Position numbers and translations under genes: made by a program
DNA from: Gammaproteobacteria bacterium
Lineage (GTDB): Bacteria; Pseudomonadota; Gammaproteobacteria; UBA4575
Assembly: GCA_965207475.1 (NCBI GenBank)
Contig: OZ242278.1
Span: 264,320 to 328,319, forward strand
Direction of reading: 5' to 3'
DNA: 64,000 nucleotides
Shown: one piece after another, positions 2,166 to 21,723 of the stretch
Numbering within the stretch: the stretch's first letter is position 1
Layout of the letters: every line of letters begins with the position of its first letter
The notes under the pieces: generated by a model
Seen by the model: only the letters and a program-made list of their open reading frames with translations
Databases searched by the model: none
What the model was told of the DNA's origin: nothing

Positions 2166-2696
2166 TTCAACCAGATAAAATATATTCTTAAATATACTTA
2201 TCACCCTGTTAGTTGAATCGTATTGCATGCAAGCCTGTATTCCCTTTAACCTTCTTGCTGGTCCGTTCTGTTGTTTTATTTAATTTAACATAATATACAT
2301 TATACGCAATCATAGATTAGCCAAGAACCCAGACCCAGGCGACCTCACGAATCCATTTAGTCAACAGGCTCTCTCCTGTCTAAATAAAAAAATGTGATTT
2401 ACAGGATCAGCAGCGCTGTTCAGCTGTTTCTGCTTCCAAAGATAATGGAGCATGTCTGTAACCTCTCAGTTCACGCACAGTGCCTCGCATTATCGTTCCC
2501 ACACATATTCTGACCTGTTTGCGGGATACACTGTTTTGACCAAATGACTGATGCAGAAATTGCACAGAGCACGCCTTTTAATATTCCAGTGCCATAGCAC
2601 TAAGCAATATACGCATTCAAATATTTTATTTCCCAAACTAATAAAATATATTAGAATATAATTATATTGTTAATTACATTTAATGGGGATCCTACA

Positions 2697-3284
2697 ATGA
2701 ACTTATCAAAACTTGCCTATCCGATTATCGCTGGGCTTTTAGTGCTTCTGATAACACCTGCTTTCGGTGACCTGGCCAAAACTGGCGATACGGCTCAAAA
2801 CCAGTCAGCTGATTGCACGGTACATCCTGTTTTCACTGATCCTGAAGCAATGGCTGCTGCAATGACTAATCCGGTCAAATTCAATGAATTGATGGTTGCG
2901 ATCAATCACCCAGCCACTACTCAAGCACTTATGAACTGCTCTATTGATCCAAAGCAATGGGAGGCCTGGATGATGAGTTTCAGCGACCCTGCCAAGTTGA
3001 CGAATGCAATGGCACAGTTCATGAACCCCCAGACATATGTTAATTGGATGGCTGCTCCCATGAACCCGCAGTCATACCAGTTTATGTATGCGTATATGAA
3101 CCCGGCATTTTATATGCAGTGGATGACTGCTCTGATGAACCCGCAGTATTACCAGCCTCTGTATAAAACTATGGACTTCAACCAAGAAGGCACTGCGTGG
3201 ATGTTTAACCCAAGCACTTATCAAAATATGTTTAGCTCTTTCTATACCCCTTCTGTAGCAGAAGCCACAGTAGACAAAAACTAA
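2697..3284 (+). CDS. Secreted Met/Tyr-rich repeat protein ((M/F)NPxxY repeats)
   Basis: Start taken at ATG 2697 (GGGGA RBS upstream), giving a Sec-type signal peptide MNLSKLAYPIIAGLLVLLITPAFG. The mature part has at least five copies of a 12-13-aa repeat: FMNPQTY..., MNPQSY..., MNPAFY..., MNPQYY..., FNPSTY. Low-complexity but clearly periodic. Confidence 0.6.
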   Translation: MNLSKLAYPIIAGLLVLLITPAFGDLAKTGDTAQNQSADCTVHPVFTDPEAMAAAMTNPVKFNELMVAINHPATTQALMNCSIDPKQWEAWMMSFSDPAKLTNAMAQFMNPQTYVNWMAAPMNPQSYQFMYAYMNPAFYMQWMTALMNPQYYQPLYKTMDFNQEGTAWMFNPSTYQNMFSSFYTPSVAEATVDKN

Positions 3285-3852: not shown

Positions 3853-4166
3853 ATCAGAATTCGCTTGAATATGCAGCCAGATAATCAGTCATTTATCAGC
3901 CTCTATCCATTTCAGTTCCGTACCCGTTTAGCAAAACTTGTAACACAGGCACAGTGCCGCCGGATCTAAGAAATTCTCATACAAGTCATCTAAAATAGCC
4001 ACTATTATCTACTGGCCTGGATAGTTTGAACTAAGCAATCAATCAGTTAGTACGTTAGAATATTCGTGAACTTACATAGTAAACTATCGTCAAAAATTAC
4101 AGTATGGCCTGTATTGGCTAGATGACAGATGTGTGCATTTCACATCACCAATCTCAAGGGGACGCC

Positions 4167-4619
4167 ATGGACATTTCGAAAAGAAGATTCATTCAATACC
4201 AGCTTTGCATAGGCATATTTGCCTTAAGTTCAGGCGTAATACCACGAGCCTGGGCAGGATGGCCGTCAGCAGCGTTTGATGAAACTGAATACTTGCCCGC
4301 GTTAAAAGGGCTAATCGGCGATCAGGAACTGCTTGATGGACACGTAGAGCTGAATGTGCCAGATATCGCTGAAAATGGCGCGACGGTGCCTGTAAAGATT
4401 TCAACAGACCTGGATAACGTCGAATGGATAAGTATCATGGGTGACAAGAATCCAAGACCTTGGATTTCAAGGTTTTATTTTCACGGAAAATCCAAGCCCT
4501 ATGTCTCTACACGCATCAAATTGCGTGAGACCTCGCATGTAGTTGCCATCATCAAGGCAGAAGGCAAATTATACAGCACGAAAAGTGCAGTGAGAGTTAC
4601 CGCGGGCGGTTGTGTCTAA
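4167..4619 (+). CDS. soxY: SoxY-like sulfur carrier protein (Tat-secreted)
   Basis: Start taken at ATG 4167 (RBS aagggga) rather than ORF start 4122. Has a twin-arginine signal SKRRFIQYQLCIGIFALS, a SoxY-like fold length, and C-terminal ...RVTAGGCV with the carrier cysteine near the C-terminus. The canonical motif is GGCGG, so this one is atypical. It is immediately followed by soxZ. Confidence 0.65.
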   Translation: MDISKRRFIQYQLCIGIFALSSGVIPRAWAGWPSAAFDETEYLPALKGLIGDQELLDGHVELNVPDIAENGATVPVKISTDLDNVEWISIMGDKNPRPWISRFYFHGKSKPYVSTRIKLRETSHVVAIIKAEGKLYSTKSAVRVTAGGCV

Positions 4620-4643
4620 ATTTCAAATTTAAGGATTGAGAGA

Positions 4644-4958
4644 ATGTCTCAAAAAATGAAAATCAGAGCCAAAGTGAAAAACGGAATAACCACAGTTAAG
4701 GCCATACTTTATCACCCCATGGAATCTGGAAGCAGGAAAGATCCTGACACTGGAGAGCTAGTTCCGGCTCACTTTATCAAAAATGTCCAGGCAGCATTAA
4801 ATGGAGAAGTGATCATCTCTGCAGAATGGGGAACAGGGATTTCGAAAAATCCCTACTGGTCATTTGAATTTGAAGGGGGCAATCCCGGGGATATTGTGAC
4901 GATCAGCTGGACTGACAATCTTGGAGAATCAGGTACAGGAGAAGCGGAGATCAAGTAA
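4644..4958 (+). CDS. soxZ: SoxZ sulfur-compound chelating protein
   Basis: 104 aa with the SoxZ pattern K-x-LI/LY-H-P-MESG-x-RKD...NG...NPY..FEF. RBS AAGGA lies 8 nt upstream. Confidence 0.7.
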   Translation: MSQKMKIRAKVKNGITTVKAILYHPMESGSRKDPDTGELVPAHFIKNVQAALNGEVIISAEWGTGISKNPYWSFEFEGGNPGDIVTISWTDNLGESGTGEAEIK

Positions 4959-4979: not shown

Positions 4980-6125
4980 TTAGGTTGCCTGTTTCTTCCA
5001 CGGCCTGAGCAGTTCCAGCAATGACGTGGCCAATGCAGTAAAGAATCCTTTCTCATCCAAGATGTGGTACTGAACTTTCATTGTAAGCGCACTGCCAAAA
5101 ATAATTGAACCCAGGGCAAGAATTGACCCCATCGCCAATGTAGACATTCCAGTCACCCCCTGCCCTATCGTGCACCCGAATGAAAGCACGCCACCGAACC
5201 CCATCAAAACTGCGCCAATCAAATGGCTGGTCATCTCAGACTTGTTGCTGAATGTTTCAATCCTGAATGACCTTGATACAAGGGCATAGAGAAAGGAACC
5301 AGTAATCATCCCAAACGCAATCGCTATGCCAAAATTGATCTGAGCGCCTGTAAAAGTCATGAGATAGCTGATTGCATTTCCTGTTGGACCGATAAAGGCC
5401 ATGCCCTGGGGCATGACCGGTTCAAAGTCATCCTGGCCTACATAGCCGGTTACATACCATGCCGCAACCACGCATACGCCGATTATGACCCCTGCAAGAA
5501 TATTGTCGAAACTTCTGCGGAATTCCTTGTGTATAAAGGCATAGGTTATGAAACCTCCAGCCAGTACTACACCGATGATTACCCTCAGCCAAGCTGTATC
5601 CTCGAGGTTCAGAAGCGATCCCAGGTAGCTGATCAGGCTTTGGTCGTTTATGCCCTGGTTCGTAAGATCAGCATTGACAGCATAAATCCAGTTCAAACGC
5701 ACGATCGCCAACAGGCCTCGCATGGTCATATAGGCGGTTATGCCCAGCACTATAATCACGACGAGTGCCTTTAAGTTTCCACCACCGAGTCGAATTAAAT
5801 TCCGTTGCCCACAGCCTGCCGCCAATGTCATGCCAATTCCAAATAGAATTCCTCCAAGGATATAGCTGAGGATGTAAAAATTAGGTGAGAGATAGATTGA
5901 CGCATTCAGGTCCACGAGTCCCTGGAAAAACAAGAACTGTGCCCCAAGTATTGCTACACCAATTGCCAGGAACCAGGCTCCTAAACGGCCTTTTGACCCC
6001 ATGTTGATCACGTCACTGATCGCACCCATTGAACAAAAGTGAGTTTTGTTTCCAATAAAGCCAAATACAGCGGCTATGATGAAGCCAAGTATTGCTACCA
6101 GATGAAGGTTAGAAAATTCTTCCAT
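4980..6125 (-). CDS. yeeE: YeeE/YedE family thiosulfate-uptake protein (TsuA-like)
   Basis: 381 aa polytopic membrane protein. It has the two sulfur-transport-domain signature cysteines in AAGCGQRN and SFGCTIGQG. RBS aggaacgaggtg lies upstream of ATG 6125. Confidence 0.75.
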   Translation of the reverse strand: MEEFSNLHLVAILGFIIAAVFGFIGNKTHFCSMGAISDVINMGSKGRLGAWFLAIGVAILGAQFLFFQGLVDLNASIYLSPNFYILSYILGGILFGIGMTLAAGCGQRNLIRLGGGNLKALVVIIVLGITAYMTMRGLLAIVRLNWIYAVNADLTNQGINDQSLISYLGSLLNLEDTAWLRVIIGVVLAGGFITYAFIHKEFRRSFDNILAGVIIGVCVVAAWYVTGYVGQDDFEPVMPQGMAFIGPTGNAISYLMTFTGAQINFGIAIAFGMITGSFLYALVSRSFRIETFSNKSEMTSHLIGAVLMGFGGVLSFGCTIGQGVTGMSTLAMGSILALGSIIFGSALTMKVQYHILDEKGFFTALATSLLELLRPWKKQAT

Positions 6126-6440: not shown

Positions 6441-7121
6441 TTACTCAGTCTTGGACCCAGAATTAGGAAGGAAATTTTTCATCATGTCTGTCCATTGATC
6501 GTACCACTGCTTATGCTGTTCAGTATCCATTTGCGGGCTTCCGGGAGACTGCGGTGATTGTCCTCCATAGCTAGGCATTGGGGGCATCATACCCATAGGG
6601 TTCATCATCGGATTTCCCATCATGGGATTCATCATGTTCATGTACATTGCAGGATTCATCATGGATCCCATCATCGGTCCCATCATCGGTCCCATCATTC
6701 CCATCATCGGATACATCATGTTCATGTACATCGCAGGATTCATCATCCCGCCAAAGGAACCCATATAGGTATTTGGATTCATTATGGAAGTCATCGCGTG
6801 AGGATTCATCATTGCCTTGTAGGGTTGCCACATCATATCCAGCATAGGCCCGAAGCTGGCATGGTACTCAGCTATATCCTGGGGTTCATGACATAGCGCG
6901 CAAGCATCTAGAGACGATGAATTTTGAGGGTTCATCATGATCGCCATCATCTGCATCCATACGTTGGGGTCCATGGAGTGTTGCATTGCCTTCGACGTGC
7001 CTAATGGAGCAGGATCTGCTTGCGGGGTTGGTGTTTCCTCAGCATGTAAGCCGATGACGCAAGCAGTAAGTAGGCAACTAGCAATCAATACCCATCGAAG
7101 CAGTCTATTATTAAATAACAT
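6441..7121 (-). CDS. Secreted, extremely methionine-rich protein with a CxxCH haem-binding motif
   Basis: Signal peptide MLFNNRLLRWVLIASCLLTAC. The mature part is roughly one-quarter Met, with at least seven MMNP repeats and MGPMMGPMMG tracts. A single CALCH (CxxCH) motif is followed by a Met-rich block. RBS AGAAGGGAA lies upstream of ATG 7121. Confidence 0.6.
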   Translation of the reverse strand: MLFNNRLLRWVLIASCLLTACVIGLHAEETPTPQADPAPLGTSKAMQHSMDPNVWMQMMAIMMNPQNSSSLDACALCHEPQDIAEYHASFGPMLDMMWQPYKAMMNPHAMTSIMNPNTYMGSFGGMMNPAMYMNMMYPMMGMMGPMMGPMMGSMMNPAMYMNMMNPMMGNPMMNPMGMMPPMPSYGGQSPQSPGSPQMDTEQHKQWYDQWTDMMKNFLPNSGSKTE

Positions 7122-7160: not shown

Positions 7161-8258
7161 TCAAAACTCGCCTGTTGCAGCGCCTTCCATAATGTAAGTC
7201 ATTGCCTCGCGAATTCTGATCGCATCCTGACGCAAATCTTTAGCCAAATGCGAGTTCGGATTTTGAGCAAAATCAAGCCATTCGATACTCCAGTCCATGG
7301 TCATGACCCACAGCTTGCCCTCACCATCCTCAATCAATGAAATCTGGCACGGCAGGAATATAACAAATTCTGGAATTTCGTCTAAGATTTTTCGAGCAAC
7401 TGCCGCATCACAGAAACGAAACATCTCGACCTTGGCAGAAGGTTTTTCCGTGACTGCTTCAATTTCTTTCCACAGTGGGCTCGAACCAACAAACTTGAAG
7501 TTCAGCTCATTCGCACGGAGCTTCATGGCCTCCACAGCATCATCCCAGGAGACGTCTTCCTGAACAGGCATCTTGTCAGTCATGATACTGATCATGTCAC
7601 GCATGGAAAGCGGACTGAAGGCCATCGCAGTTTGAAAGGCATTCTTCTTGGCTTCACGGGACACTCCGGGAGATACCTTGTTTTTCGGCCAGTTTTGATA
7701 ATTCTGGGTCGGGAAAAACGGGATTCTTACAGCCGGTAAATGCTCTGGAACTTTGCCTCCCCTGTAAGCAGAACCCGCATGGCCGAACATACCAAACAAA
7801 AGATGTGGATTCATCGAGCGCATCATCATGTCCATGGCCCATGGTTGCGTCATCATGTCCACAGGAAAGTTATACATGGTCCTCATCATTCCCATCATCG
7901 GATACATCATGCCCATGTAGGCTGCAGGGTTTAGCATAGTGAAGGGGTTAAAGAAGTTCGCAAATGAACCATGTGCCCCCGTCCATGGGTTATGCACCGA
8001 TTGAGAAGGTGCCTGCTTTGCTATTCCTTCATTAATACTGGCCCGTGAGTCTTCGGTGGACTCTGGGTTAGTATCTGTATTTGTTTTCCCGCTTGGTTCT
8101 TGACTGTCATCCATCTTTACAACAGTCTCGGTCTGGACAGAATTCTCTGCGTTGTTTTGACTAGAAAGTTCTGAACTTATTGAGGTCGTGGGCAAGACTA
8201 GTATCCCAGCCATCAAGACAACGAGCGTCCGAGTCACTTCAGCATACTTCATAAGCAT
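7161..8258 (-). CDS. Secreted protein: Met-rich repeat region fused to a C-terminal DUF302-like domain
   Basis: N-terminal signal peptide, then an S/T/N/E-rich linker. The Met-rich block (MLNPAAYMGMMYPMMGMMRTMY...MDMMMRSMNP) is homologous to the two other Met-rich proteins. The C-terminal roughly 130 aa (VSWDDAVEAMKLRANELNF...PCQISLIEDGEGKLWVM...) resembles DUF302 (PF03625). That domain call is from memory, not from a search. Confidence 0.5.
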   Translation of the reverse strand: MLMKYAEVTRTLVVLMAGILVLPTTSISSELSSQNNAENSVQTETVVKMDDSQEPSGKTNTDTNPESTEDSRASINEGIAKQAPSQSVHNPWTGAHGSFANFFNPFTMLNPAAYMGMMYPMMGMMRTMYNFPVDMMTQPWAMDMMMRSMNPHLLFGMFGHAGSAYRGGKVPEHLPAVRIPFFPTQNYQNWPKNKVSPGVSREAKKNAFQTAMAFSPLSMRDMISIMTDKMPVQEDVSWDDAVEAMKLRANELNFKFVGSSPLWKEIEAVTEKPSAKVEMFRFCDAAVARKILDEIPEFVIFLPCQISLIEDGEGKLWVMTMDWSIEWLDFAQNPNSHLAKDLRQDAIRIREAMTYIMEGAATGEF

Positions 8259-8335: not shown

Positions 8336-8896
8336 TTGCAATCAGACAACTCACAGAGGTATCTTTTGAAACTTTTACTTGCCGCCGCCCTGCTGATCAT
8401 CGGTGCAGTCTCCATGGCTGTATCCTCTGTCACATTAGAGGCTACCAACAGCACGGACTTCTGCACATCGTGCCATTCCATGCAGTGGGTACAGGAAGAA
8501 TGGATGGAAAGCATCCACTATACAAATATCTCGGGTGTACGTGCCGGCTGTTCTGACTGCCATGTTCCGCACAGCCTGGGGCCAAAGCTGTATGCCAAGA
8601 TTCGCGCCGCAAAGGATGTATGGCACGAGATCCTGGGCACCATAGATGATGAAGAAAAATTTGAAAAGCACCGGTGGCAGATGGCAAATGCCGTATGGAC
8701 ACGAATGAAAGCAAATGACTCGCGTGAGTGTCAGTCATGCCACACCATTGCTGCCATGGATCTCAAGGAACAGGACCGCTCAGCACGCAAAAAACACAAA
8801 AATGCAGAGACGCGCGGAAAAACCTGCATTGATTGCCATACTGGTGTGGCACATACACTGCCCAGAAAACCTGCAGAGGAAATTGCACTGAACTAG
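8336..8896 (+). CDS. NapC/NirT/CymA-family membrane-anchored tetrahaem cytochrome c
   Basis: Four CxxCH motifs (CTSCH, CSDCH, CQSCH, CIDCH) after one N-terminal TM helix. Length and spacing are typical of NapC/NirT quinol dehydrogenases. An alternative TTG start at 8364 follows the GAGGT RBS. Confidence 0.8.
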   Translation: MQSDNSQRYLLKLLLAAALLIIGAVSMAVSSVTLEATNSTDFCTSCHSMQWVQEEWMESIHYTNISGVRAGCSDCHVPHSLGPKLYAKIRAAKDVWHEILGTIDDEEKFEKHRWQMANAVWTRMKANDSRECQSCHTIAAMDLKEQDRSARKKHKNAETRGKTCIDCHTGVAHTLPRKPAEEIALN

Positions 8897-9033
8897 GCAA
8901 GGCGCGGGTCTAAAAGCGGCCATTCAACTGTGCTAGTATTCGTGTGCGGGGATAAAAATCACTGCAGTTGTGCTTAGATTCTAGCCGTTTGCAGAATAAC
9001 GAAGCCATGAATATCCAGTACAGGAGGATAAGA

Positions 9034-9699
9034 ATGCTGTTAACAATTGTCCGCCATACATTTTTGTTATGTGTGCTCAGTCTGCTGACTTTCCATACCG
9101 TATCAGCATCCGACCTTGCAAGCCCGGCTATGCTATCTGACACATGTCTTGGCTGCCATGGTCCAGCAGGTATCAGCGAGGGGCCAGCGACCCCGACCAT
9201 TTCGGGAATGTCAGAAATTTACATAATTGGCGCAATGTTGGCCTACAAGTACGATAACGACGAGGATAAGGTTGAGGAAGTGATTGAATCGGATCCTGAC
9301 TTCGAGGACGTCGAATTCTTTGCCCGAACGTCCACTGTCATGGACCGAATTGCCAAAGGTTATTCCGAAGCAGAAATCAAGGCTATCGCAAAGTACTTTG
9401 CAGCATTGCCTTTTAAGGCCAGTGTGCAGGAGGTCAACCCTGAACTGGCCAAGGCCGGTGCAGAAATCCACGAACATCACTGTGAAAAATGCCACGAGGA
9501 TGGCGGAAGGTCTGCGGATGATGATGCAGGAGTACTGGCGGGACAGTGGATTCCTTACCTTGAATATACAATGGCTGATTTTCAAAGCGGCGATCGGGCC
9601 ATGCCTAAAAAAATGAGGAAGCAGATGGAAGAAGCCCATGACGTGCATGGAGAGGAATCAATTGCCAAACTCATCCAGTTTTATGCAGATCAGGAATAA
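9034..9699 (+). CDS. fccA: Flavocytochrome c sulfide dehydrogenase, dihaem cytochrome subunit
   Basis: I started it at ATG 9034 (AGGAGG at 9022-9027) rather than ORF start 8968. It has a signal peptide and two CxxCH motifs (CLGCH, CEKCH), and is immediately followed by the flavoprotein subunit with a slight overlap. Confidence 0.75.
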
Positions 9700-9730
9700 A
9701 GCGCCAGTCAGGATTGCAGGAGGAACTAAC

Positions 9731-11014
9731 ATGCCAAATCTAAATAGAAGGAAATTTTTACAGAGTACAGGTAGCGCATTTGCACTGGGCTCCACCGTAC
9801 TCGGTTTTCCGCATATAGCGGGGGCTGCAAAAAAACGTGTCGTCGTAATTGGCGGTGGTGTAGGCGGATCGATCGCTGCCAAATATATTGCCAAAGGAGA
9901 TTCTTCCATAGAGGTAACCATTGTTGAAGCAAAACCCAGTCACCATACATGCTTCATGAGTAATGAGGTAATTGGAGGTGATCGAGATATTTCAACAATC
10001 GAGTTTGGCTACGACAAGTTTGCGAGCCACGGAATAAAAGTAGTTCAGGACAAGGCTACTGCGGTTGACCCCGTTGCCCACAAGGTTACCACTGCAGGTG
10101 GTGTAACGCTTGAGTATGACCGTCTGGTAATGTCACCGGGCATTGCGCTCCAGTGGGAAACGATTGAAGGCTACGATGAGGCTGCTGCTGAAATCATGCC
10201 CCATGCCTGGCTAGCAGGACAGCAGACTGCACTGCTGAGAAAACAGCTGGAATCGATGGATGACGGTGGACTGGTGGTCATTGCCCCTCCAGGCAATCCG
10301 TTCCGTTGCCCGCCGGGCCCTTATGAGCGCGCCGCACAGATTGCTCATCATCTCAAGCATCACAAACCGAAATCCAAGGTTTTGATACTTGATGCCAAAG
10401 ACAAGTTCTCCAAACAGGGATTGTTCATGCAGGGTTACAAGAAAGTCTACGGGGACATGATCGAGTGGGTTCCAGGGGCGGATACAGGTGGAGGCGTCAC
10501 CTCGGTAGATCCCAAGGCGATGAAAGTCAGCACTGATTTTGATGAACATAAAGTTGCTGTAGCCAATATCATCCCACCGCAAAAAGCGGCACAAATTGCC
10601 CATGATGCAGATCTGACGGATGATTCTGGCTGGTGCCCTGTAGACTTGGGGACATTCGAGTCCAAGCGGCACAAGGACATACACGTCATCGGCGATGCCG
10701 GGATCATTACGGGTATGCCCAAGTCCGGTTTTGCTGCGGGCACCGAGGCGAAAGTGGTTGCTTCAGCAGTCGTCAGCATGCTTCAGGAAAAGGAGTCCGG
10801 CGTTAATTCCTATGCCAATGCATGCTACAGCATCATCGCACCAGACTACGGAATTTCTGTGGTTGCTGTGTACAAGCTTGCCGCAGACCGTTCGAAAATC
10901 GAAAAGATGAGTGGCGGGCTTACTCCTGCTGATGCAACTCCGGAAGCGCTTAAACGTGAAGTGCAATATGCCTACAGCTGGTTCAAAAATATGACGGCTG
11001 AAATGTTTGGTTAA
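9731..11014 (+). CDS. fccB: Flavocytochrome c sulfide dehydrogenase, FAD-binding subunit
   Basis: Start ATG 9731 (AGGAGG RBS) gives a Tat signal [16 protein letters not shown]. It has a Rossmann dinucleotide-binding motif [16 protein letters not shown], and its length and pattern match the FccB/SoxF flavoprotein family. Confidence 0.85.
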
Positions 11015-11091: not shown

Positions 11092-11610
11092 TTATTCGAT
11101 AAGCGGCACCTTGTAGACAAGGGTCCCGATCGCCCCATCGTTGCCCTTGAAGTTTGCATGGCACATCACACACCTCTCGAGAACGACCGGGACGGCCGTG
11201 GCCTTACGCAGATAGCGCATGCCTTCAATGGTGACTACCTCTTCATGCGTAGACTCGCCACCTAGCAGCTTTTCTTTAGCCTGCTCTTCGAATTCATCTT
11301 TCGGTCGATTCATCTCAGGATGGATGAGAACATCCGTCAGGCCTACAAGGCGCACCTCGTGATAGCCGTTGTTACTCATGGTGTCAAACAACGCTTTCGC
11401 AGCGCTTGCCCCCGAAAACTTCGACGGATCAGTGACGTATTTGTCCGTGATCAGCACTATCGCTGTCTTGTACAGGGTGTCAAGCATCTCTACATGCTGG
11501 CGCGTTCTTGTGACTTCAGGATCTTCATCTGCCATGGAGGCTTCACTGAACAAAGCCAGCGGCATGCAGACAGGAACTAGCCAGGCAAGAAGGCTTTTTC
11601 GCTTTCTCAT
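11092..11610 (-). CDS. Periplasmic c-type haem (CxxCH) protein, DUF3365-like sensor-domain fold
   Basis: 172 aa with a signal peptide and a single C-terminal CVMCH motif. Its size and C-terminal haem position resemble DUF3365 (Tll0287-like) proteins. That domain assignment is from memory. Confidence 0.45.
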   Translation of the reverse strand: MRKRKSLLAWLVPVCMPLALFSEASMADEDPEVTRTRQHVEMLDTLYKTAIVLITDKYVTDPSKFSGASAAKALFDTMSNNGYHEVRLVGLTDVLIHPEMNRPKDEFEEQAKEKLLGGESTHEEVVTIEGMRYLRKATAVPVVLERCVMCHANFKGNDGAIGTLVYKVPLIE

Positions 11611-12296: not shown

Positions 12297-12923
12297 CTAG
12301 ACAAACAGGCAGATATTCGCGTCCTTGGCAGCTGAAAGAAAGGAGGCTGCACCGACCCACTCTGATACTTCATCGATAAACTCGGCCTTGTCATACCCGA
12401 ATAAGTCCGCTGTCATCTCACAGCCAATAATTTTTACTTCAGCTTCGATGGATAAGGCACGCAACTCCTGGATACTTGCGACACCTTTCTCCTTGATAGT
12501 CCGCTCCATCATCAAGGTGGCAAATTTTTCAAATCCCGGGAGGTTACTGCTCAGTGCATTGGGTATATTCCATTCCACACTTTTGAACCAGTCGGGGCCA
12601 AACGGCATTTTCATTGGCATCGCAGGATTGCCCAGCGGCGAAACAGCAAGGTTCAAATCTTTCTTCAGAAGGTTCAGTCCGTAAAAAGTAAAGAAGCAGG
12701 ATACATCCCAGCCCAGAGCTGCAGCAGTCGACGCAAGAATAAAGGGAGGGTACGCCATGTCCAATGTGCCCTTGGTGGCAATCAGTGACAACTGGGGGGT
12801 CCTGGCTTCTGCACGCTCGCGCAGCCTTTGCTCCAGCCTTTCGTCGAACCAATTGTTCAGTGCTTCCTGGTCAAGCTGTGACGGGACCTGGGATTCGGAT
12901 TCGGGTGTACTTTCTTGCTGCAT
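12297..12923 (-). CDS. DsrE/DsrF-like family protein (sulfur-relay-like), with an N-terminal Q/E-rich extension
   Basis: The core LSLIATKGTLDMAYPPFILASTAAALGWDVSCFFTFYG is characteristic of the DsrE/DsrF-like (COG2210-type) family, with a candidate active cysteine in SCFF. Confidence 0.6.
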   Translation of the reverse strand: MQQESTPESESQVPSQLDQEALNNWFDERLEQRLRERAEARTPQLSLIATKGTLDMAYPPFILASTAAALGWDVSCFFTFYGLNLLKKDLNLAVSPLGNPAMPMKMPFGPDWFKSVEWNIPNALSSNLPGFEKFATLMMERTIKEKGVASIQELRALSIEAEVKIIGCEMTADLFGYDKAEFIDEVSEWVGAASFLSAAKDANICLFV

Positions 12924-13117: not shown

Positions 13118-13193
13118 TGGCGTCCCCAGGGGGATTCGAACCCCCGTTGCCGCCGTGAAAGGGCGATGTCCTAGGCCTCTAGACGATGGGGAC
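13118..13193 (-). tRNA. tRNA-Glu (anticodon UUC)
   Basis: The reverse complement reads GTCCCCATCGTCTAGAGGCCTAGGACATCGCCCTTTCACGGCGGCAACGGGGGTTCGAATCCCCCTGGGGACGCCA. That is 76 nt with a full cloverleaf, anticodon loop CUUUCAC, and an encoded CCA. Confidence 0.9.
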
Positions 13194-13710
13194 AGACGAA
13201 TGTTCCTGCATTAACCAGCTATACCTGCATCAGAAGCGGCGCAAGGTACGCTAACCCAGCTTTTGCGTCAAGTACTACGGCATCGGGCAGCACTTGATAT
13301 GGCTAGGCACTACTGAAAAGTAGCTCTAACCATCTGATATATTAGTATCAGTACACTACCAGATAATCCAGTTGCCCCCAATGTTGCCCCAGATACTGCG
13401 ATGGCCGGATCCAAATTCTTAAAGCGCTGTTATCTATAGTTATTTTTAATTTTTACGGATGTTGTCAAAAGTAAATCTGTTCCTTAGACAGTGCCAAGCC
13501 GAGACATGGTTAGGGAAAATAGACTTGCAGATCTGTCCATCTACCCAGGAACCCCTCTCCTCAAGGAATCTCTGTTTTTATTCCGATAGTGCCACGACTG
13601 CGGTTGTACCTATAAGAAACACAGGTGCGTCGCCAAGCGCAGATCACGAAGGGACACCTGATCGTGAAATGTATAATACGCTGGCACTTTGATGCATAAA
13701 GGAGTTCCGT

Positions 13711-14670
13711 ATGCCTATCCGTGATTACCAGTCGCTCATGCTTCCAGTCCTCAAGGCACTCGCCGACGGGCTCGAAGCCCCGCTGTCCAAAATACGAGCC
13801 CATGTTGCTGTTTCGGAAAAGCTGACTGAGCAAGAACTCTCCCAACGGGTGCCAAGTGGGCAGCAGACGGTCTTGAACAATCGCGTCAGTTGGGCGCTGC
13901 ATCGCTTGGAAAAGGCGGAACTGGTCGGGCGGTCGCGCCGCGGAGTATATCAACTGACAACTGAGGGGGACCGGTTGCTGAAGGAGGAACCGGAGAAAGT
14001 AAATAACGTTTTTCTTCGTACTCATTATTCAGCGTATGCAGAGTGGTTGCGTTTGTATGAACAGCGGTATAGGCAGCGACAGAAACGTGAGGGCACATCG
14101 CAGACTGCGCCAGCACAGCTTCGAGTGCCTGATTCCGAAGAGACGCCCGAGGAGCAACTGGGACGTGCCGCTCGGGAACTGCGCATTGCGCTGGAGTCTG
14201 AAATACTGAGTCTTGTCCGCAGTGCCCCTCCCGAATTCCTTGAGCACGTAATCGTCGATCTGCTGGTGTCGATGGGCTATGGTGGCGGTGATGCGGCCAA
14301 GAGCCGTGTGACAGGACGTTCGGGAGATGGCGGTATCGACGGCACAATCCGGGAAGACGCACTCGGTCTGGACGAGGTCTATGTTCAGGCCAAGAAATAC
14401 GCCGAAGGCAGCAACGTTGGCGAAGGTGACTTGCGCAACTTTGCAGGTGCCATTGACGCAGCAGGCACATCCAAGGGCGTATTCGTTACCACAGCTGGAT
14501 TCACGCGATCTGCGCGAGATTACATCGCACGCAGTCCAAAGCGAATCATTCTAATTGATGGCGAAGAATTGGCCCGACTTATGGTCCAGCACGATGTAGG
14601 CGTGCGGACACGCGACCGCTACGAGATCAAGCGGGTTGACGAAGACTATTTTGATCAGGAAGAGCTGTAG
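13711..14670 (+). CDS. mrr: Mrr-family type IV restriction endonuclease (Mrr_N winged-helix + Mrr_cat)
   Basis: Has an N-terminal Mrr_N-like domain and a C-terminal catalytic core (...GDGGIDGTIREDALGLDEVYVQAKKY...) with the PD-(D/E)XK-type D...(E/Q)xK arrangement typical of Mrr_cat. GGAG RBS lies upstream. Confidence 0.7.
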   Translation: MPIRDYQSLMLPVLKALADGLEAPLSKIRAHVAVSEKLTEQELSQRVPSGQQTVLNNRVSWALHRLEKAELVGRSRRGVYQLTTEGDRLLKEEPEKVNNVFLRTHYSAYAEWLRLYEQRYRQRQKREGTSQTAPAQLRVPDSEETPEEQLGRAARELRIALESEILSLVRSAPPEFLEHVIVDLLVSMGYGGGDAAKSRVTGRSGDGGIDGTIREDALGLDEVYVQAKKYAEGSNVGEGDLRNFAGAIDAAGTSKGVFVTTAGFTRSARDYIARSPKRIILIDGEELARLMVQHDVGVRTRDRYEIKRVDEDYFDQEEL

Positions 14671-14673
14671 TTC

Positions 14674-17478
14674 ATGCGCCTTTCGTGGAACGAGGTTCGA
14701 GTTCGTGCTGCAACTTTTGCCAAGGAGTGGCAGGATGCATTTTATGAGAAAGGCGAAGCACAAAGTTTCTACAACGATTTTTTTGAGATCTTTGGAGTTC
14801 GGCGACGAAGCGTTGCCCGCTACGAAGAGCATGTAAAGAAACTGGACGACACTTCCGGCTTCATTGACCTGTTCTGGCCGGGGGTTCTCATTGTCGAGCA
14901 GAAGAGTGCAGGACGTGACCTCACCAAGGCAGGCGACCAAGCTAGAGAATACTTTGATGCCCTGAAAGAAAGTGATCGGCCACAGTATATCTTGGTAAGC
15001 GACTTCCAGACCTTCGAACTCCATGATCTCGATGAGCGAAAGCAAGTAAATTTCAAACTCGCAGAGCTGCCCGCGCATGTCGAGTCGTTTGGCTTCATCC
15101 TCGGCGTACAGCGCCGCACCTTCCGCGATCAGGATCCGGCCAACATCAAGGCAGCGGAACTGGTCGGGCGGTTGCATGATGCCCTGGCCGCAACAGGCTA
15201 CCAAGGCCACTACCTGGAACGCTTTCTGGTGCGAATCGTCTTCTGCCTGTTTGCCGATGACACGGGCATTTTCGAGCCACGTGACATTTTCCTCGATTTC
15301 ATCCAGGCACGCACGAGCGAGGATGGGGCTGATCTCGGGCCGTGGCTGGCCCAATTGTTCCAGGTGATGGATACAACGGAAGATGCCCGCACGGCAACGC
15401 TGGATGAAGACCTTGCGCGGTTTCCCTATGTCAACGGTGACTTGTTCCATGGGCGACTAGACATTCCATCTTTTGACTCAGCCATGCGCAAATTGCTGCT
15501 GGATGCTTGCCGCTTTGACTGGTCGAATATTTCACCTGCAATCTTTGGGGCGTTGTTCCAGTCAGTAATGAATCCGGAGGAACGCCGTGCCCAGGGTGCG
15601 CACTATACGACCGAGAAGAACATCCTCAAGGTGATTGAGCCACTGTTTATGGACGACCTGCGCACCGAGTTCAAACGGCTAAAGTCTCGCAAGGACAGTC
15701 GGCGCCAAGCTGAGCTTCAACGATTTCAGAAAAAACTCGGCAGTTTGACGTTTTTTGACCCGGCCTGTGGTTGTGGCAACTTCCTTATCATCGCCTATCG
15801 GGAATTGCGTGAACTTGAGATTGAGGTCCTGAAGGAAATTCACAAAAAGTTCCTAGTTCGCATGAGCCGTCTGAAGGGCGGTTCCAGCCTTCCCTCAGAT
15901 CAACTTTCCTGCATCGATGTTAATCAGTTCTATGGGATTGAGTTAGGTGAATTCCCATCCCGAATCGCAGAAACCTCGCTGTGGATGATGGACCACATCA
16001 TGAACAACCGGCTAAGCCTGGAGTTTGGTCAGTCCTATGCGCGTATCCCGCTTGCAAAGTCGCCGCATATTGTCCACGGCGATGCGCTTGAAACGGACTG
16101 GTCCGAGTTGTTACCGGCGAAGGATTGCTCCTTCGTCTTCGGCAATCCGCCATTCAAAGGTGCAAAGTTCCAGACAGCGAACCAGCGCGCGCAGGTACGT
16201 AGGATCGCGGCACTCGGCAGGAGTGGCGGCACGCTCGATTATGTCTGTGCATGGTTCATCAAGGCAGGTGAGTATGTACAGGACAGCGATGCCCGAATCG
16301 GCTTCGTCGCGACCAACTCGATCACAGCAGGCGAGCAAGTAGCTCAACTCTGGCCGATCCTATTCGAGCGCTGCAAGCTGGAGATCGCATTCGCGCATCG
16401 CACATTCGCATGGGGATCGGATGCGCGTGGTAAGGCCCATGTGCATGTGGTGATTCTCGGTCTCGATCGAAGGGAGGCAGTGCAACCTAAGAAGCGCCTG
16501 TTCAGCTATCCCGACATCAACGGTGAGCCAGAGGAGACCCGCCATGTGGCGCTTTCTCCGTATCTGTTCGATGCCAGCGGGCTATCGGACCCGCATCTGG
16601 TGGTGCGGGAGGAGAGCGCGCCGATCAACGGAATGGGAAGATTGATAATAGGCTCCAAGCCAATCGACGGCGGAAATTACATTTTCGACGAAGCGGAACG
16701 CACTGCGTTTCTTGAAGCAGGGCCCGAGGCTGAGCAGTGGCTTCGACCGTTCATTGGAGCACGTGAGTATTTGCACGGTGGCGAACGGTGGATTCTTGCG
16801 CTACATGACACGCCGCCCGACGTGTTGGGGCGGTTGCCGCATGTACGAGAACGTATTGCAGCTGTACGGACATATCGTGAGGAAAGTAAAAGCAAGCCGA
16901 CTCAGAAACTTGCAAAAACACCAACGCTCTATCATGTGAATATTATTCCTGATGCACCGTTTCTTGTTATCCCCGAAGTCAGTTCGGAACGTCGTGAGTA
17001 CGCGCCTATCGGGTGGCTGGAGCCACCCGTAATCCCAAGCAATCTAGTCCGCGTTTTGGAAAATGCGACCTTGTCAGATTTTGCGTTGCTGACCTCAGCC
17101 ATGCACATGGCGTGGCTACGTCATATCGGTGGACGGCTGGAGAGCCGCTACCGCTATTCCATCGGTCTCGTCTACAACACCTTTCCGCTGCCGCCCAAGA
17201 ACTTGGACCTGTCAAAGCTGGACCCACTAGCACAAGCCGTGCTTGATGCCCGTGCAACTCATCCGAATGCCACGCTTGCAGATCTCTATGATCCTGACTC
17301 GATGCCTCCTAATCTCCGTAAGGCACACTACGCACTTGACCGTGCGGTGGACCAGCTCTATCGACATAAGGGGTTTGCTTCCGAACGCGAACGGGTCGAG
17401 CACCTGTTCATGCTATATGAGAAAATACAAGCGCCGCTAAAACCTATAACTAGGAAAAGAAGACCCCGAAAGCGATGA
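14674..17478 (+). CDS. MmeI-family type IIL restriction-modification enzyme (N-terminal PD-(D/E)XK endonuclease fused to gamma-class N6-adenine DNA methyltransferase and TRD)
   Basis: 934 aa. The N-terminal FIDLFWPGVLIVEQK is a D...ExK nuclease motif. Methyltransferase motif I is FFDPACGCGNFLI and motif IV is GNPPF. The domain order and the length (MmeI is about 919 aa) fit the MmeI family. It starts 3 nt after the mrr stop. Confidence 0.6.
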   Translation: MRLSWNEVRVRAATFAKEWQDAFYEKGEAQSFYNDFFEIFGVRRRSVARYEEHVKKLDDTSGFIDLFWPGVLIVEQKSAGRDLTKAGDQAREYFDALKESDRPQYILVSDFQTFELHDLDERKQVNFKLAELPAHVESFGFILGVQRRTFRDQDPANIKAAELVGRLHDALAATGYQGHYLERFLVRIVFCLFADDTGIFEPRDIFLDFIQARTSEDGADLGPWLAQLFQVMDTTEDARTATLDEDLARFPYVNGDLFHGRLDIPSFDSAMRKLLLDACRFDWSNISPAIFGALFQSVMNPEERRAQGAHYTTEKNILKVIEPLFMDDLRTEFKRLKSRKDSRRQAELQRFQKKLGSLTFFDPACGCGNFLIIAYRELRELEIEVLKEIHKKFLVRMSRLKGGSSLPSDQLSCIDVNQFYGIELGEFPSRIAETSLWMMDHIMNNRLSLEFGQSYARIPLAKSPHIVHGDALETDWSELLPAKDCSFVFGNPPFKGAKFQTANQRAQVRRIAALGRSGGTLDYVCAWFIKAGEYVQDSDARIGFVATNSITAGEQVAQLWPILFERCKLEIAFAHRTFAWGSDARGKAHVHVVILGLDRREAVQPKKRLFSYPDINGEPEETRHVALSPYLFDASGLSDPHLVVREESAPINGMGRLIIGSKPIDGGNYIFDEAERTAFLEAGPEAEQWLRPFIGAREYLHGGERWILALHDTPPDVLGRLPHVRERIAAVRTYREESKSKPTQKLAKTPTLYHVNIIPDAPFLVIPEVSSERREYAPIGWLEPPVIPSNLVRVLENATLSDFALLTSAMHMAWLRHIGGRLESRYRYSIGLVYNTFPLPPKNLDLSKLDPLAQAVLDARATHPNATLADLYDPDSMPPNLRKAHYALDRAVDQLYRHKGFASERERVEHLFMLYEKIQAPLKPITRKRRPRKR

Positions 17479-18299
17479 ATGAGTTTCTGTTCACGTCAAT
17501 CGTCCAACGCCAAAGGTGCTCAACTGACAGAGTAGACCCACGTCCAAATCTGCACAATGCTGTTCATATGAAACACGCACCGCATGGTCTTGCACGAGCT
17601 GTGCCGGTAGGCGCTAGTGCGGGCGAACAGAGAGCTACCGCCATGTTTGTGCTCCTGTTGCTAATTCTCGCTATGACTACAGCAGCACAAGCGAGCAAAC
17701 GTCTGCAGACCGTGACGTGTGGTCTGCCACAGCAGGACAACTCAATTCCCGATCTCTTTCCTACGGGGCTACACCGACCCTTTGCCGGACGATTCACTTA
17801 GCGGGCACATGGAGGTGAAGACCTTTAACCGCCTCCATCCCGAGAGTGGTATCAGCACCGAAATGTGGATGCTCTCACGCAATGTTGGCTGGTGGAGGCT
17901 GAAAATGATCCGGGTGCACCCGGATGATTTGTCAAAGCTTTCTGCCAAATCATCGACTCTCCTTTCCTGTCACGATCCGTTGTCATACGTGGAGGGGACA
18001 CAGACGAGGAAGAGTTAGTGACCAGGCAGATCTTGGCCCTGCTGCCGGACGTCTCCCAACTGCGGTGCTTCCCGCAATCGGAAAGATAGAAAATCACTCG
18101 TGAAGGTCCATTGACGGTGCATCACAAGCGGTTGGAACTGCGTTGCCTATTACCCGCCATTGCCGCAACGACAAATCTGCTGAACTTTATCTCCACAGGT
18201 CTCGGTGTTGTACGGCAACAAGACCCATTTGCGAGCGAAGAATTTAGTAGAGCATTTGGGTTAGCTAATCTGAGAATACAGTGATTTGAGTCCTTTCCC

Positions 18300-19204: not shown

Positions 19205-19262
19205 GGCCGTGTCACTACCCGGTGAAGCGAAGCAAAACGCGGTAGTGACGCGGCCGCTTTTG
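19205..19262 (+). terminator. Long perfect-stem hairpin followed by a T-run (terminator-like or RNA structural element)
   Basis: cggccgtgtcactacc (19205-19220) pairs with ggtagtgacgcggccg (19241-19256) as a 16-bp stem with one mismatch, around a 20-nt loop, followed by ctttt. No protein-coding gene lies immediately upstream on this strand. Confidence 0.35.

Positions 19263-21647: not shown

Positions 21648-21723
<76 letters not shown>

Follow-up and report, generated by a model that had tools for sequence, protein, structure and literature searches.

DUF302 is a widespread protein family with a structure solved since 2004. No biochemical function for any DUF302 protein was found in the searchable literature; an apparent mention in a paper on auranofin was rejected, the domain there being DUF3025. 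Reported locations of DUF302 genes are clusters with sox, sqr or persulfide dioxygenase genes, and above all sox operons devoid of soxCD (PMC5037610, PMC5248467, PMC11034169, PMC5061849, PMC6305408), which agrees with the statement in an earlier note on this DNA that the domain recurs in sulfur-metabolism neighbourhoods. In Acidithiobacillia the gene is found between soxA and soxB (PMC5037610, PMC5248467); elsewhere it adjoins the YeeE gene in the sox clusters of Sulfitobacter (PMC11034169), is included in the sqr operon of Synechocystis (PMC5061849) and forms part of an Arthrobacter plasmid module together with a sulfur dioxygenase and rhodaneses (PMC6305408). For the protein of the Acidithiobacillia sox operon, trithionate oxidation has been speculated (PMC5037610).

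The product of ORF 7161-8258 in the window, by which we mean the whole 64-kb stretch of DNA analysed here, has the same fold as the TT1751-like DUF302 proteins (PF03625; 1j3m, 1q9u, 7tj1), matches the family above the Pfam threshold, and has two cysteines, Cys283 and Cys304, that each align with a cysteine of TT1751. The solved DUF302 proteins are single domains of about 130 residues, whereas this protein, which is predicted to be exported, additionally carries a disordered spacer, a Met-rich module and a conserved N-terminal extension some 60 residues long; a QNPNxH loop is specific to its clade, unlike the solved members. The Acidithiobacillia protein described by Boden and co-workers is likewise Sox-associated and was assumed to be periplasmic, in line with the predicted signal peptides in most of the present clade, but it comprises only 191 aa and has no Met-rich part, whereas the gene found here stands at the head of a unit encoding a Met-rich haem-motif protein and YeeE (PMC5037610).

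YeeE-like SoxT transporters have only recently been implicated in the route by which periplasmic sulfane sulfur from SoxY and sulfide dehydrogenases reaches the cytoplasm; in Hyphomicrobium, they import sulfur that is then oxidised there (PMC11582611). The YeeE/TsuA-YeeD and SoxT1/SoxT2 systems (PMC11073785, PMC11582611) resemble the present locus in that a YeeE-family transporter is tied to sulfur oxidation genes and has accessories encoded next to it. The accessory YeeD is however cytoplasmic and TusA-like, whereas the accessories here, the DUF302 and Met-rich proteins, are predicted to be exported, and no YeeD gene was found in the 315-bp gap preceding yeeE.

Architecture of the DUF302 protein

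ORF 7161-8258 on the reverse strand is a single ATG-to-stop reading frame that fits these positions exactly and encodes 365 aa plus the stop; the second ATG (8252) may be the true start. As a search gave 334 homologues, with strong conservation of the C-terminal 230 residues (alignment A1), we conclude that it is a real gene. PF03625 was present in all 120 of the listed homologues among these 334. The source organism is an uncultured sulfur-oxidising gammaproteobacterium. A promoter-like site matching at 10 of 12 positions lies upstream of the gene at 8326-8297, and the promoter and terminator scan gave counts no higher than expected by chance.

The product is a Met-rich DUF302 protein, predicted to be exported. 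Its five parts are, from the N-terminus, a signal peptide or anchor, a spacer that is acidic and disordered, the Met-rich module, a Pro-rich linker and the DUF302 domain (Table 1). Read by eye, the first 28 residues comprise a basic n-region, a 12-residue hydrophobic core and the sequence SIS. Hydrophobic N-termini also occur in the homologues and in most of 150 representatives of the DUF302 clade, and these N-termini are the basis for the predicted export. Of the 67 residues of the spacer, 11 are acidic, 4 are basic and 30 are S/T/N/Q; the spacer varies in length and sequence across the homologues, with large length differences and zero conserved columns in A1. The linker, modelled by AlphaFold2 at a pLDDT of 35-58, has many invariant columns in alignments A1 and A2, with the motif LPxxxIPGFPTQ...N.VSP.xSxEAKKNAF, and is partly kept in unfused relatives of 239 aa, for example in L055.

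The earlier note had assigned the C-terminal module to DUF302 and proposed a Pfam search, and this search supports the assignment (PF03625, E=2.2e-9, 37.5 bits against a cut-off of 23, aa 275-322). It is further supported by Foldseek of the AlphaFold2 model, which retrieved the three solved DUF302 proteins (1q9u, 7tj1, 1j3m) with E-values between 2e-7 and 4e-7 and target TM-scores of 0.66-0.83; no other fold was significant, the next match having E=0.06. The sequence strings quoted for the region are all present in the ORF. The domain had been placed at aa 235-365; its C-terminal location holds, but the folded part starts earlier, at about aa 225, and aa 225-365 have a pLDDT of 86-94. The DUF302 call is qualified by the divergence of this sub-clade, predicted to be exported, whose identity to the solved structures is 13-16% for the 365-aa protein. 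A phmmer and profile search of the PDB retrieved 1j3m at a marginal E=1.3, the remainder being low-complexity noise, and NCBIfam has no model for the DUF302 or Met-rich proteins of the locus.

The 365-aa protein belongs to a small, divergent DUF302 clade, mostly of predicted exported proteins, with two near-invariant cysteines. Among the aligned representatives of this clade, position 283 is Cys in 127 of 138 and position 304 in 124 of 137, and P303, E310, D311 and W317 are each found in more than 90%.

Table 1. Features of the DUF302 gene and of the genes around it in the window
Feature	Position (nt)	Strand	Basis or remark
Signal peptide or signal anchor, aa 1-28	8175..8258	-	MLMKYAEVTRTLVVLMAGILVLPTTSIS, read from sequence
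Polar/acidic low-complexity spacer, aa 29-95	7974..8174	-	Composition and A1
Met-rich module, aa 96-165	7764..7973	-	17 Met in 70 residues
Pro-rich linker and two helices entering the DUF302 domain, aa 166-224	7587..7763	-	Conservation in A1 and A2
DUF302 (TT1751-like) alpha/beta domain, aa 225-365	7164..7586	-	Pfam, AlphaFold2, Foldseek
Cys283 codon, motif F-R-F-C-D	7410..7412	-	Invariant in A1 and A2
Cys304 codon, motif F-L-P-C-x-I	7347..7349	-	Invariant in A1 and A2
226-aa protein, predicted exported, 21% Met, CALCH haem-c motif	6441..7121	-	Composition; 39 bp downstream of DUF302 gene
YeeE/YedE-family sulfur transporter	4980..6125	-	Pfam Sulf_transp E=1.3e-62; third gene, same strand
SoxY (4122-4619) and SoxZ (4644-4958), periplasmic sulfur-carrier pair	4122..4958	+	Pfam in relative L081, synteny
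Third Met-rich protein, 195 aa from internal ATG, 9% Met	2697..3284	+	ORF 2667-3284
NapC/NirT tetrahaem cytochrome	8336-8896	+	Pfam Cytochrom_NNT; divergent from DUF302 gene
Dihaem cytochrome c	8968-9699	+	Pfam Cytochrom_C; divergent from DUF302 gene
FccB, flavocytochrome c sulfide dehydrogenase flavoprotein	9638-11014, likely start 9731	+	Pfam FCSD_central, FCSD-flav_bind
DsrE2-type sulfur-transfer protein, borders cluster	12297..12923	-	Pfam DrsE_2 E=1.2e-46

The Met-rich module and roles known for methionine

The Met content of the module (24%) compares with a mean of 2.8% in the long ORFs of the window (binomial P=7.6e-12), and only ORFs 7161-8258 and 6441-7121 reach at least nine Met per 40 residues anywhere in the 64 kb. 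The earlier note had called the product the third Met-rich protein, and this is correct, the others being those of 6441-7121 and 2667-3284. The module contains (N)P-capped Met/aromatic motifs followed by the conserved stretch PVDxMTxxxxMDxMMRSMxP, in which T137, M145, M146, M149 and P151 are invariant in A1. It is rich in aromatic residues, only 4 of its 70 residues (6%) are charged, and AlphaFold2 modelled it as short helices at a low pLDDT of 31-55. Such a Met-rich DUF302 module appears to be new to description.

No claim is made that the fused module stems from the partner gene, because hhalign of the module against the N-domain of the neighbour 6441-7121 gave only a 19-column, low-complexity match. 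Since the density of Met N-terminal to the DUF302 domain is graded among relatives, and module and partner genes gave no sign of homology beyond low complexity, the 'fusion' may instead be an expansion of Met in situ. DNA tandem repeats were not found within the Met module of the DUF302 gene itself.

The classical roles of Met-rich segments are those of copper(I) ligand and of sink for oxidants. Sulfidic habitats are copper-stressed, which counts for a role in Cu(I) or soft-metal buffering. The Met modules would then bind periplasmic Cu(I) and protect or supply c-type cytochromes, and DUF302 would be a metal-handling domain that acts through its two cysteines. The dense MxxM and MxM motifs (8 and 6 in the DUF302 protein, which also has 6 MM, and 15 and 7 in the neighbour 6441-7121) are shared with the equally extracytoplasmic Met-rich Cu(I) regions of CopA/PcoA, the CueO insert, PcoC/CopC, CusF and Ctr1. 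Cu(I) binding by Met clusters is well established (PMC10092412 and references therein), and a DUF302 gene lies beside a metal-resistance island in Acidihalobacter (PMC7760498). We nevertheless consider this role distinctly unlikely. Unlike the Met-rich Cu(I) proteins, the DUF302 protein has no cupredoxin, CusF or CopC domain, nor any other copper-domain Pfam match, and His is rare in the arrays: the Met array of the neighbour (79 residues, nt 6576-6812) has a single His and lacks Cys. The conserved neighbours are all sulfur genes (Sox, Fcc, YeeE, DsrE2) and include no copper genes; a P-type ATPase, HMA, multicopper oxidase, CusCBA/CusF or CopC/D was found neither among the scanned genes of the window nor in the annotated 21 kb of L081, a 93%-identical relative. 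Furthermore, one relative of the partner protein, in L082, lacks Met-richness.

A second known role is that of a sacrificial oxidant sink, in which exported Met would be turned into methionine sulfoxide by reactive species arising where sulfide meets oxygen, thereby shielding the cysteines and haems of Sox and Fcc, and would be re-reduced by a periplasmic methionine sulfoxide reductase. The model for such a role is MrpX of Azospira, which is exported, consists of Met to 20% and scavenges hypochlorite (PMC4436054). The Met fraction is similar here (24% in the module, 21% in the neighbour), the proteins are predicted to be exported and modelled as largely disordered, and the tandem Met-rich copies described below would suit a stoichiometric role. 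However, MrpX is a small protein with 44% charged residues that is co-transcribed with yedYZ (msrPQ) (PMC4436054), whereas the module here has 6% and sits on a folded domain with no msrPQ nearby: no molybdopterin oxidoreductase or YedZ-type gene was found among the scanned window genes or in the same annotated 21 kb of L081. An oxidant sink would also account neither for the DUF302 domain and the link with YeeE nor for the conserved CxxCH motif and the orderly helix repeats of 12/13 residues, and we regard it as decidedly improbable.

A conserved unit with a CxxCH protein and YeeE

The DUF302 gene heads a conserved three-gene unit encoding DUF302, a Met-rich CxxCH protein and a YeeE-type transporter. 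In the second protein, CALCH is found at aa 74-78 (nt 6888-6902), behind a signal-like N-terminus. The pattern MQKSMDPxVW...C..CH...ARYQKDFGPMM is conserved in 45 CxxCH-protein sequences (44 locus sequences and the window's own), the members of this alignment having been selected for carrying CxxCH from a family assembled from related loci. A homologue search by shared exact words, with the N-domain of this protein as query, gave no candidate. The protein matched no Pfam family, including the Pfam cytochromes, and in NCBIfam it gave only a 14-bit match to SorU; on its motif, we presume it to be a haem c protein.

The unit is surrounded by genes for sulfur oxidation and electron transfer. The genes at 4122-4958 correspond to genes of the 93%-identical relative L081 that match the Pfam families SoxY and SoxZ. 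The NapC-like, dihaem and FccB genes (8336..11014) are conserved upstream of the DUF302 gene in L001-L030, and the DsrE2 gene is near it in most gammaproteobacterial loci. The protein encoded at 2697-3284, conserved beside SirB and SoxYZ in L001-L012, contains 13-residue (D/N)P-capped helix repeats and two invariant cysteines; its all-alpha AlphaFold2 model of 11 short helices gave no structural match.

The presence of CxxCH in the product of the gammaproteobacterial gene 3' of DUF302, in the same 44 locus sequences and the window's own, and the richness of the cluster in cytochromes (NapC-like, FccA and a Tll0287-like protein with CVMCH) would be in line with a redox or haem role. In that case the adjacent Met-rich c-type cytochrome would have DUF302 as its partner, its maturation factor or its redox sensor, and the unit would move electrons and not sulfur. 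However, CxxCH is missing from the beta- and alphaproteobacterial partner proteins, many members of the DUF302 clade have no adjacent cytochrome, and we know of no cofactor for DUF302. Such a role seems to us most improbable.

The earlier note had also proposed a survey of DUF302 neighbourhoods for Met-rich partners, and had held that the fusion ties DUF302 to a Met-rich system. By strict Met cut-offs, a Met-rich ORF was found within 3 kb of the DUF302 gene at 58 of 79 related loci; 83 such ORFs lie within this distance and 3 further off in the same loci, corresponding to densities of 1.93 and 0.08 per 10 kb, or about a 23-fold difference. The tie is thus upheld by the neighbourhood, although the gene fusion itself may be the in-situ expansion considered above. 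The pairing spans Gamma-, Beta- and Alphaproteobacteria. In the gammaproteobacterial loci L001-L034, the order is DUF302, a CxxCH protein with 20-30% Met, and YeeE, and the trio is flanked by SoxYZ, FccAB-NapC and DsrE2. Rhodocyclaceae (L052-L057) have the order YeeE, Met-rich, DUF302, and Arenicellales (L066, L067) the order Met-rich, DUF302, YeeE. In Beta- and Alphaproteobacteria, DUF302 and the Met-rich repeat protein are encoded by separate adjoining genes. The trio stands alone in Sulfuritalea, between queC and ribosomal protein genes, and the alphaproteobacterial DUF302/Met-rich pair of L070 lies outside any sulfur cluster. Of the other members of the DUF302 clade, one is directly 3' of soxYZAXB, and others adjoin a DsrC-like gene, cysA or FccB (L058, L068, L071, L074). 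The relative of the partner repeat protein in L082 is not Met-rich at all, from which it follows that Met is not essential to the pairing of DUF302 with its partner.

Met-rich genes also occur in tandem, with up to 4 per locus by the strict cut-offs and 5 by looser ones. The sulfur globule proteins known so far are rich in Gly and Tyr rather than in Met, which speaks against a structural role in which the Met-rich proteins would coat, or condense around, periplasmic sulfur deposits as sulfur globule proteins do, with DUF302 anchoring or organising the coat. Low-complexity proteins with predicted export, arrays of variable length, one to several tandem paralogues per locus, and repeat expansion at the DNA level (a 12-bp tandem repeat at 6657-6721 in the gene of the neighbour 6441-7121, encoding (GPMM)n) would fit such a scaffold. 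A candidate relative is VHTgp, a disordered protein of 223 aa that is encoded directly upstream of a DUF302 gene and whose own gene was transcribed more highly than any other in a gammaproteobacterium from sediment (bioRxiv 10.64898/2026.01.07.698198). Chemistry is favoured over pure structure, however, by the haem motif and by the near-invariant residues of DUF302, and we judge a scaffold to be very unlikely.

Proposed role in sulfur transfer

We lean tentatively, at somewhat less than an even chance, towards a role of the DUF302 unit in the periplasm, as an accessory that would deal with zero-valent sulfur and direct it to YeeE, a sulfur-transfer role that is suggested by the gene neighbourhood. 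The zero-valent (sulfane) sulfur would be the product of flavocytochrome c sulfide dehydrogenase or would be carried by SoxY, and the unit would hand it towards YeeE for import and subsequent oxidation in the cytoplasm. The cysteine pair of DUF302 (Cys283 and Cys304) would be the likely persulfide acceptor, while the thioether-lined Met modules, fused here and encoded by separate genes elsewhere, might hold hydrophobic sulfur chains or mediate contacts between the partners. Counted against this sulfur-transfer role were the solubility of thiosulfate, the known YeeE substrate, for which a hydrophobic carrier is unnecessary, the non-Met partner in L082, the out-of-cluster pair in L070, and the classical Cu(I) and oxidant roles of Met.

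In a bolder form, which we think rather unlikely, YeeE would constitute an unrecognised periplasmic system together with DUF302 and the Met-rich proteins with helical repeats and haem motif. The thioether-lined proteins of this system would serve as a 'solvent' for zero-valent sulfur, which is hydrophobic, and the two DUF302 cysteines would strip sulfane sulfur from SoxY or from the products of Fcc and feed it to the transporter. If true, this would give the DUF302 family a function and would explain how periplasmic sulfane sulfur enters the cytoplasm in sulfur oxidisers that lack SoxCD. The DUF302 protein is a testable lead on sulfur handling outside the cytoplasm in sulfur-oxidising bacteria, and the locus offers concrete candidates and residues (Cys283, Cys304 and CxxCH) for biochemistry and genetics.

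The repeats of the partner proteins carry Met at the hydrophobic positions of amphipathic helices. Short D/N-P-capped helices with Met at hydrophobic positions are likewise found in STI1/DP-type domains (Hop DP, ubiquilin, Sgt2). The partner proteins gave weak, sub-threshold matches to STI1-HOP_DP, UBQLN1 and RPAP3_C (19-20 bits for STI1-HOP_DP/UBQLN1 against cut-offs of 27-29), the DUF302 protein itself had no Pfam match to STI1-HOP_DP/UBQLN1, and Foldseek of a partner protein model against the PDB gave no match with E<1. The likeness to STI1/DP domains is one of pattern, from which membership does not follow. The 12/13-residue helix repeat bears Met in the Sulfuritalea MAG (L055), in a sulfur cluster, and Leu, Val or Ile in L082, in a different gene context.

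DUF302 assignment and anatomy of the protein

The ORF runs from ATG to stop at exactly 7161-8258 on the minus strand and encodes 365 aa, in agreement with the earlier note, whose proposal of a C-terminal DUF302 domain was confirmed by both profile and fold. Pfam PF03625 matched the C-terminal part with E=2.2e-9 (score 37.5 bits, cut-off 23), and a Foldseek search of the AlphaFold2 model against the PDB returned the three solved DUF302 proteins 1q9u, 7tj1 and 1j3m at E 2e-7 to 4e-7, with target TM-scores of 0.66-0.83; the next match had E=0.06. Sequence similarity to the solved structures is marginal (1j3m, the protein TT1751, at E=1.3), and in those marginal alignments Cys283 (FRFCD) and Cys304 (FLPC) both pair with TT1751 cysteines. 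Profile, fold and cysteine pair all place the protein in the DUF302 family.

A word-indexed protein search yielded 334 homologues, with PF03625 in all 120 of those listed, and several sources already annotate them as 'DUF302 domain-containing protein'. When aa 195-365 were compared exhaustively by phmmer with 1.84 billion cluster representatives, just 271 clusters matched at E ≤1e-3 (131 at 1e-10, 26 at 1e-30), and the clade is therefore small and divergent. Its best 150 representatives are mostly 170-260 aa long with hydrophobic, signal-like N-termini, and only four of them have a Met-rich N-terminal part; C283, P303, C304, E310, D311 and W317 each occur in >90% of those aligned, and a QNPNxH loop is confined to the closest relatives.

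The anatomy of the protein (Table) was derived from alignments of 24 and then 83 homologues, and from an AlphaFold2 model of aa 95-365. The protein, which we infer to be exported, has a signal-like N-terminus, a Met module that is hydrophobic and uncharged, and a DUF302 domain in which two cysteines are conserved. Met accounts for 8.8% of all residues and for 17 of the 70 residues at aa 96-165 (binomial P = 7.6e-12 against the mean of 2.8% Met in the window's long ORFs); across the whole 64 kb, only this ORF and its neighbour at 6441-7121 reach at least 9 Met per 40 residues. The module has just 6% charged residues, many aromatics, and N-P and M-N-P motifs, and is closed by a conserved stretch with T137, M145, M146, M149 and P151 invariant in the homologue alignment. 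The Met fraction is comparable to that of MrpX, which would suggest an oxidant sink, but MrpX is highly charged and msrPQ-linked, whereas the module here is not and no msrPQ-type gene was identified among the window genes scanned or in the annotated 21 kb around the gene in a 93%-identical relative; the protein was rejected as an MrpX-type peptide, a defining feature having been tested and found absent.

The earlier note described a fusion of Met repeats to DUF302. The two components do lie in one polypeptide here, and Beta- and Alphaproteobacteria encode them in two neighbouring genes; an origin by gene fusion is less certain. Met density N-terminal to DUF302 is graded among relatives, with at least 12 Met per 40 residues in 32 loci, 8-11 in 18 loci (as a short WMNMQWMMMMANHFMN-type element) and <8 in 27 loci, and hhalign of the Met module against the neighbour gave low-complexity similarity only. 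The architecture may therefore reflect growth in place of a short Met-rich element rather than fusion with a partner gene.

Features of the protein and of the window
Feature	Position	Strand	Evidence or remarks
N-terminus, signal-peptide-like or anchor-like	aa 1-28	-	inspection of sequence
Spacer, polar and acidic, unconserved, length highly variable	aa 29-95	-	alignments
Met-rich module	aa 96-165	-	composition, alignments, AlphaFold2 pLDDT 31-55
Pro-rich linker, strongly conserved, and two short helices	aa 166-224	-	alignments, AlphaFold2
Beta-alpha domain (DUF302)	aa 225-365	-	AlphaFold2 pLDDT 86-94
Met-rich neighbour, 226 aa, putatively exported	6441-7121	-	21% Met; CxxCH at 6888-6902; 39 bp after DUF302 gene
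YeeE/YedE transporter	further 315 bp past neighbour	-	Pfam Sulf_transp, E=1e-62
NapC/NirT tetrahaem cytochrome, dihaem cytochrome c, FccB flavoprotein	8336-11014	+	divergent, 77 bp upstream of DUF302 gene
Tll0287-like (DUF3365) haem protein	11092-11610	-	CVMCH motif; beyond FccB, adjoins Rrf2 regulator
Rrf2 regulator, DsrE2	beyond FccB, with Tll0287-like gene
SoxYZ, SirB, third Met-rich protein	other side of the cluster
Third Met-rich protein, 195 aa, putatively exported	2697-3284	+	9% Met, moderately Met-rich; lies in ORF 2667-3284
tRNA-Glu	13118-13193
Mrr-family restriction endonuclease, MmeI-type restriction-modification enzyme (934 aa), tyrosine integrase	about 13400-21500		between tRNA-Glu and tRNA-Ala
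tRNA-Ala	21648-21723

Met-rich partner proteins

A scan of one genome per species found 80 loci with relatives of the protein. The close loci come from MAGs of uncultured Gammaproteobacteria or 'Thiotrichales', whose chromosomes measure 1.7-2.8 Mb, and the top match has 94% identity and identical synteny; more distant loci belong to Rhodocyclaceae, Sulfuritalea, Thiobacillaceae, Arenicellales, Rhodobacteraceae and Hyphomicrobiales. None of the 80 has the strongly Met-rich form in a cultured organism.

In a survey of DUF302 neighbourhoods for Met-rich partners, as proposed in the earlier note, 58 of the 79 loci analysed have a strictly Met-rich ORF (12 or more Met within a stretch of 40 residues, and a total Met content of 12% or more) within 3 kb. 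Such ORFs number 83 within 3 kb of the DUF302 gene, and the other 355 kb of these loci contain 3 (1.93 versus 0.08 per 10 kb), counts that are not independent events, many loci being phylogenetically related. Some loci have up to four Met-rich genes in tandem, or five by a looser test.

In gammaproteobacterial loci, the gene directly downstream of DUF302 has a CxxCH motif. Among 45 aligned sequences (44 from loci chosen for having the motif, and the window's own) its context is conserved as MQKSMDPxVW..MM.MMM....C..CH...D.ARYQKDFGPMM, followed by a Met array. In the window, a 12-bp DNA tandem repeat within this array (4.8 copies, 6657-6721) encodes (GPMM)n, which suggests growth by slippage. 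The neighbour looks like a Met-rich monohaem c-type protein with putative haem attachment; it matched no Pfam family and no cytochrome profile. The existence of partners without CxxCH makes a role in redox or haem chemistry alone less likely. His-rich ORFs at 6558-6896 (+) and 7740-7934 (+), for example HHRISHHGIHHVHVH, lie antisense to the Met-rich coding regions and were rejected as genes: ATG reads as CAT on the opposite strand, and these ORFs mirror the ATG-rich coding sequence.

Larger partners are made of 12/13-residue units, h-T-(D/N)-P-K-h-h-x-x-h-h. In the partner of a Sulfuritalea MAG (L055, 4688-5935; 24% Met), Met or Trp fill the hydrophobic positions; in that of locus L082 (2608-3828), Leu, Val, Ile or Phe do, and the protein is not Met-rich. 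The L082 gene has a DUF302 gene on either side, with cysA and a LysR regulator upstream. It shows that Met is dispensable for the DUF302-partner relationship itself, and none of the models so far fully explains it. The third Met-rich protein has 13-residue, (D/N)P-capped Met/aromatic helix units and two invariant Cys. It has 19 homologues and matched no Pfam or NCBIfam family; its AlphaFold model is all-alpha (11 short helices, mean pLDDT 60) and matched no solved fold, and in close relatives its gene always adjoins SirB and SoxYZ. Partner proteins gave sub-threshold Pfam matches to STI1-HOP_DP, UBQLN1 and RPAP3_C. These matches recall the way eukaryotic STI1 domains cap their Met-rich helices with D/N-P, but do not establish membership; the DUF302 protein was rejected as an STI1-domain protein, a defining feature being absent when tested.

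Sulfur gene context and possible function

The gene is tightly and repeatedly linked to Met-rich partners, the YeeE transporter, and Sox, Fcc and DsrE2 genes. In tblastn of window proteins against the 80 loci, the entire arrangement was kept in the related loci L001-L030. Rhodocyclaceae (L052-L057) have the order YeeE, Met-rich protein (415-480 aa), DUF302 protein (239 aa); Sulfuritalea has this trio alone, bounded by queC and ribosomal protein genes; and Arenicellales-like loci (L064-L067) have SoxB, Met-rich, small Met-rich CxxCH protein, DUF302, YeeE. The DUF302 gene is immediately ahead of FccB in L058, L068, L071 and L074, and other clade members lie directly 3' of soxYZAXB, adjoin a DsrC-like gene, or are flanked by a LysR regulator with cysA and by a second DUF302 gene. 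One alphaproteobacterial pair (L070) has no sulfur cluster around it. Cu(I) buffering by the Met-rich modules is supported by their Met motifs, but no copper gene or copper-binding domain was found in the conserved neighbourhood; the protein was rejected as a recognised copper protein, a defining feature having been tested and found absent.

The NapC/NirT-type tetrahaem cytochrome gene lies directly ahead of fccA and fccB, also in L001-L030, which points to a possible electron route from flavocytochrome c sulfide dehydrogenase to a membrane-bound NapC-like cytochrome. FccB probably starts at 9731, right before a twin-arginine motif (NRRKFLQ). The Tll0287-like protein and the Rrf2 regulator, both kept in the closest relatives, could be a sensor-regulator pair for the cluster. 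SoxY (4122-4619, +) has the C-terminus ...TAGGCV, unlike the GGCGG-type end of canonical SoxY. Lucinid symbionts have divergent SoxY paralogues near YeeE (PMC11237559), and this SoxY may belong with them.

The literature searched assigns no function to DUF302 and repeatedly places it in sox, sqr and dioxygenase clusters, in line with the link to sulfur metabolism in the earlier note. Acidithiobacillia and Thiohalorhabdus, in organisms without soxCD, have the gene between soxA and soxB, where a trithionate role was speculated (PMC5037610, PMC5248467). In Sulfitobacter, soxF and soxH enclose it together with YeeE (PMC11034169); in Synechocystis it is part of the sqr operon (PMC5061849); and Arthrobacter plasmids carry it alongside genes for a sulfur dioxygenase, rhodaneses and TauE (PMC6305408). 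In Hyphomicrobium, the YeeE-like SoxT1A is needed to bring sulfur into the cytoplasm, where it is oxidised (PMC11582611). The exported DUF302 clade, its Met-rich extension, the Met-rich CxxCH partner and the conserved YeeE association are undescribed in the literature found.

Polysulfide or S0 is an established product of flavocytochrome c sulfide dehydrogenase and of SQR, and where the Sox system is truncated, sulfane sulfur stays on SoxY. From sequence, predicted structure and gene context in metagenome-assembled genomes, we tentatively propose, as a reading slightly more likely wrong than right, that the trio of DUF302 protein, Met-rich partner and YeeE handles zero-valent sulfur in the periplasm. 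The DUF302 cysteine pair would accept sulfur derived from Fcc/SQR or SoxY and pass it to YeeE, with DsrE2-type carriers taking over in the cytoplasm; the Met modules, flexible thioethers on amphipathic helices, would give sulfur chains or rings a soft hydrophobic surface, or alternatively serve in partner docking. That the protein takes some part in handling periplasmic sulfur stands on firmer ground than these specific cysteine and methionine roles. A structural coat like that of sulfur globules is suggested by the low complexity and tandem paralogues, and possibly by very high expression in a 2026 preprint, but would leave the haem motif and the invariant DUF302 residues unexplained. That preprint reports VHTgp, an unannotated, poorly folded protein of 223 residues, as the top-transcribed gene of a sediment gammaproteobacterial MAG, just upstream of a DUF302 gene in the same direction (bioRxiv 10.64898/2026.01.07.698198). 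As a lead only, VHTgp is a candidate member of the Met-rich partner family. The Met-rich ORF upstream of DUF302 in the Arenicellales-like locus L067 (4506-5177) also encodes 223 aa.

Mobile island and tmRNA

The stretch between the two tRNA genes is absent from L081, a 93%-identical relative with an IS481-type transposase in its place, and is therefore a strain-specific mobile island bordering the sulfur cluster. A tmRNA gene at 34642-34995 (+) encodes the tag peptide ANDDNYALAA.
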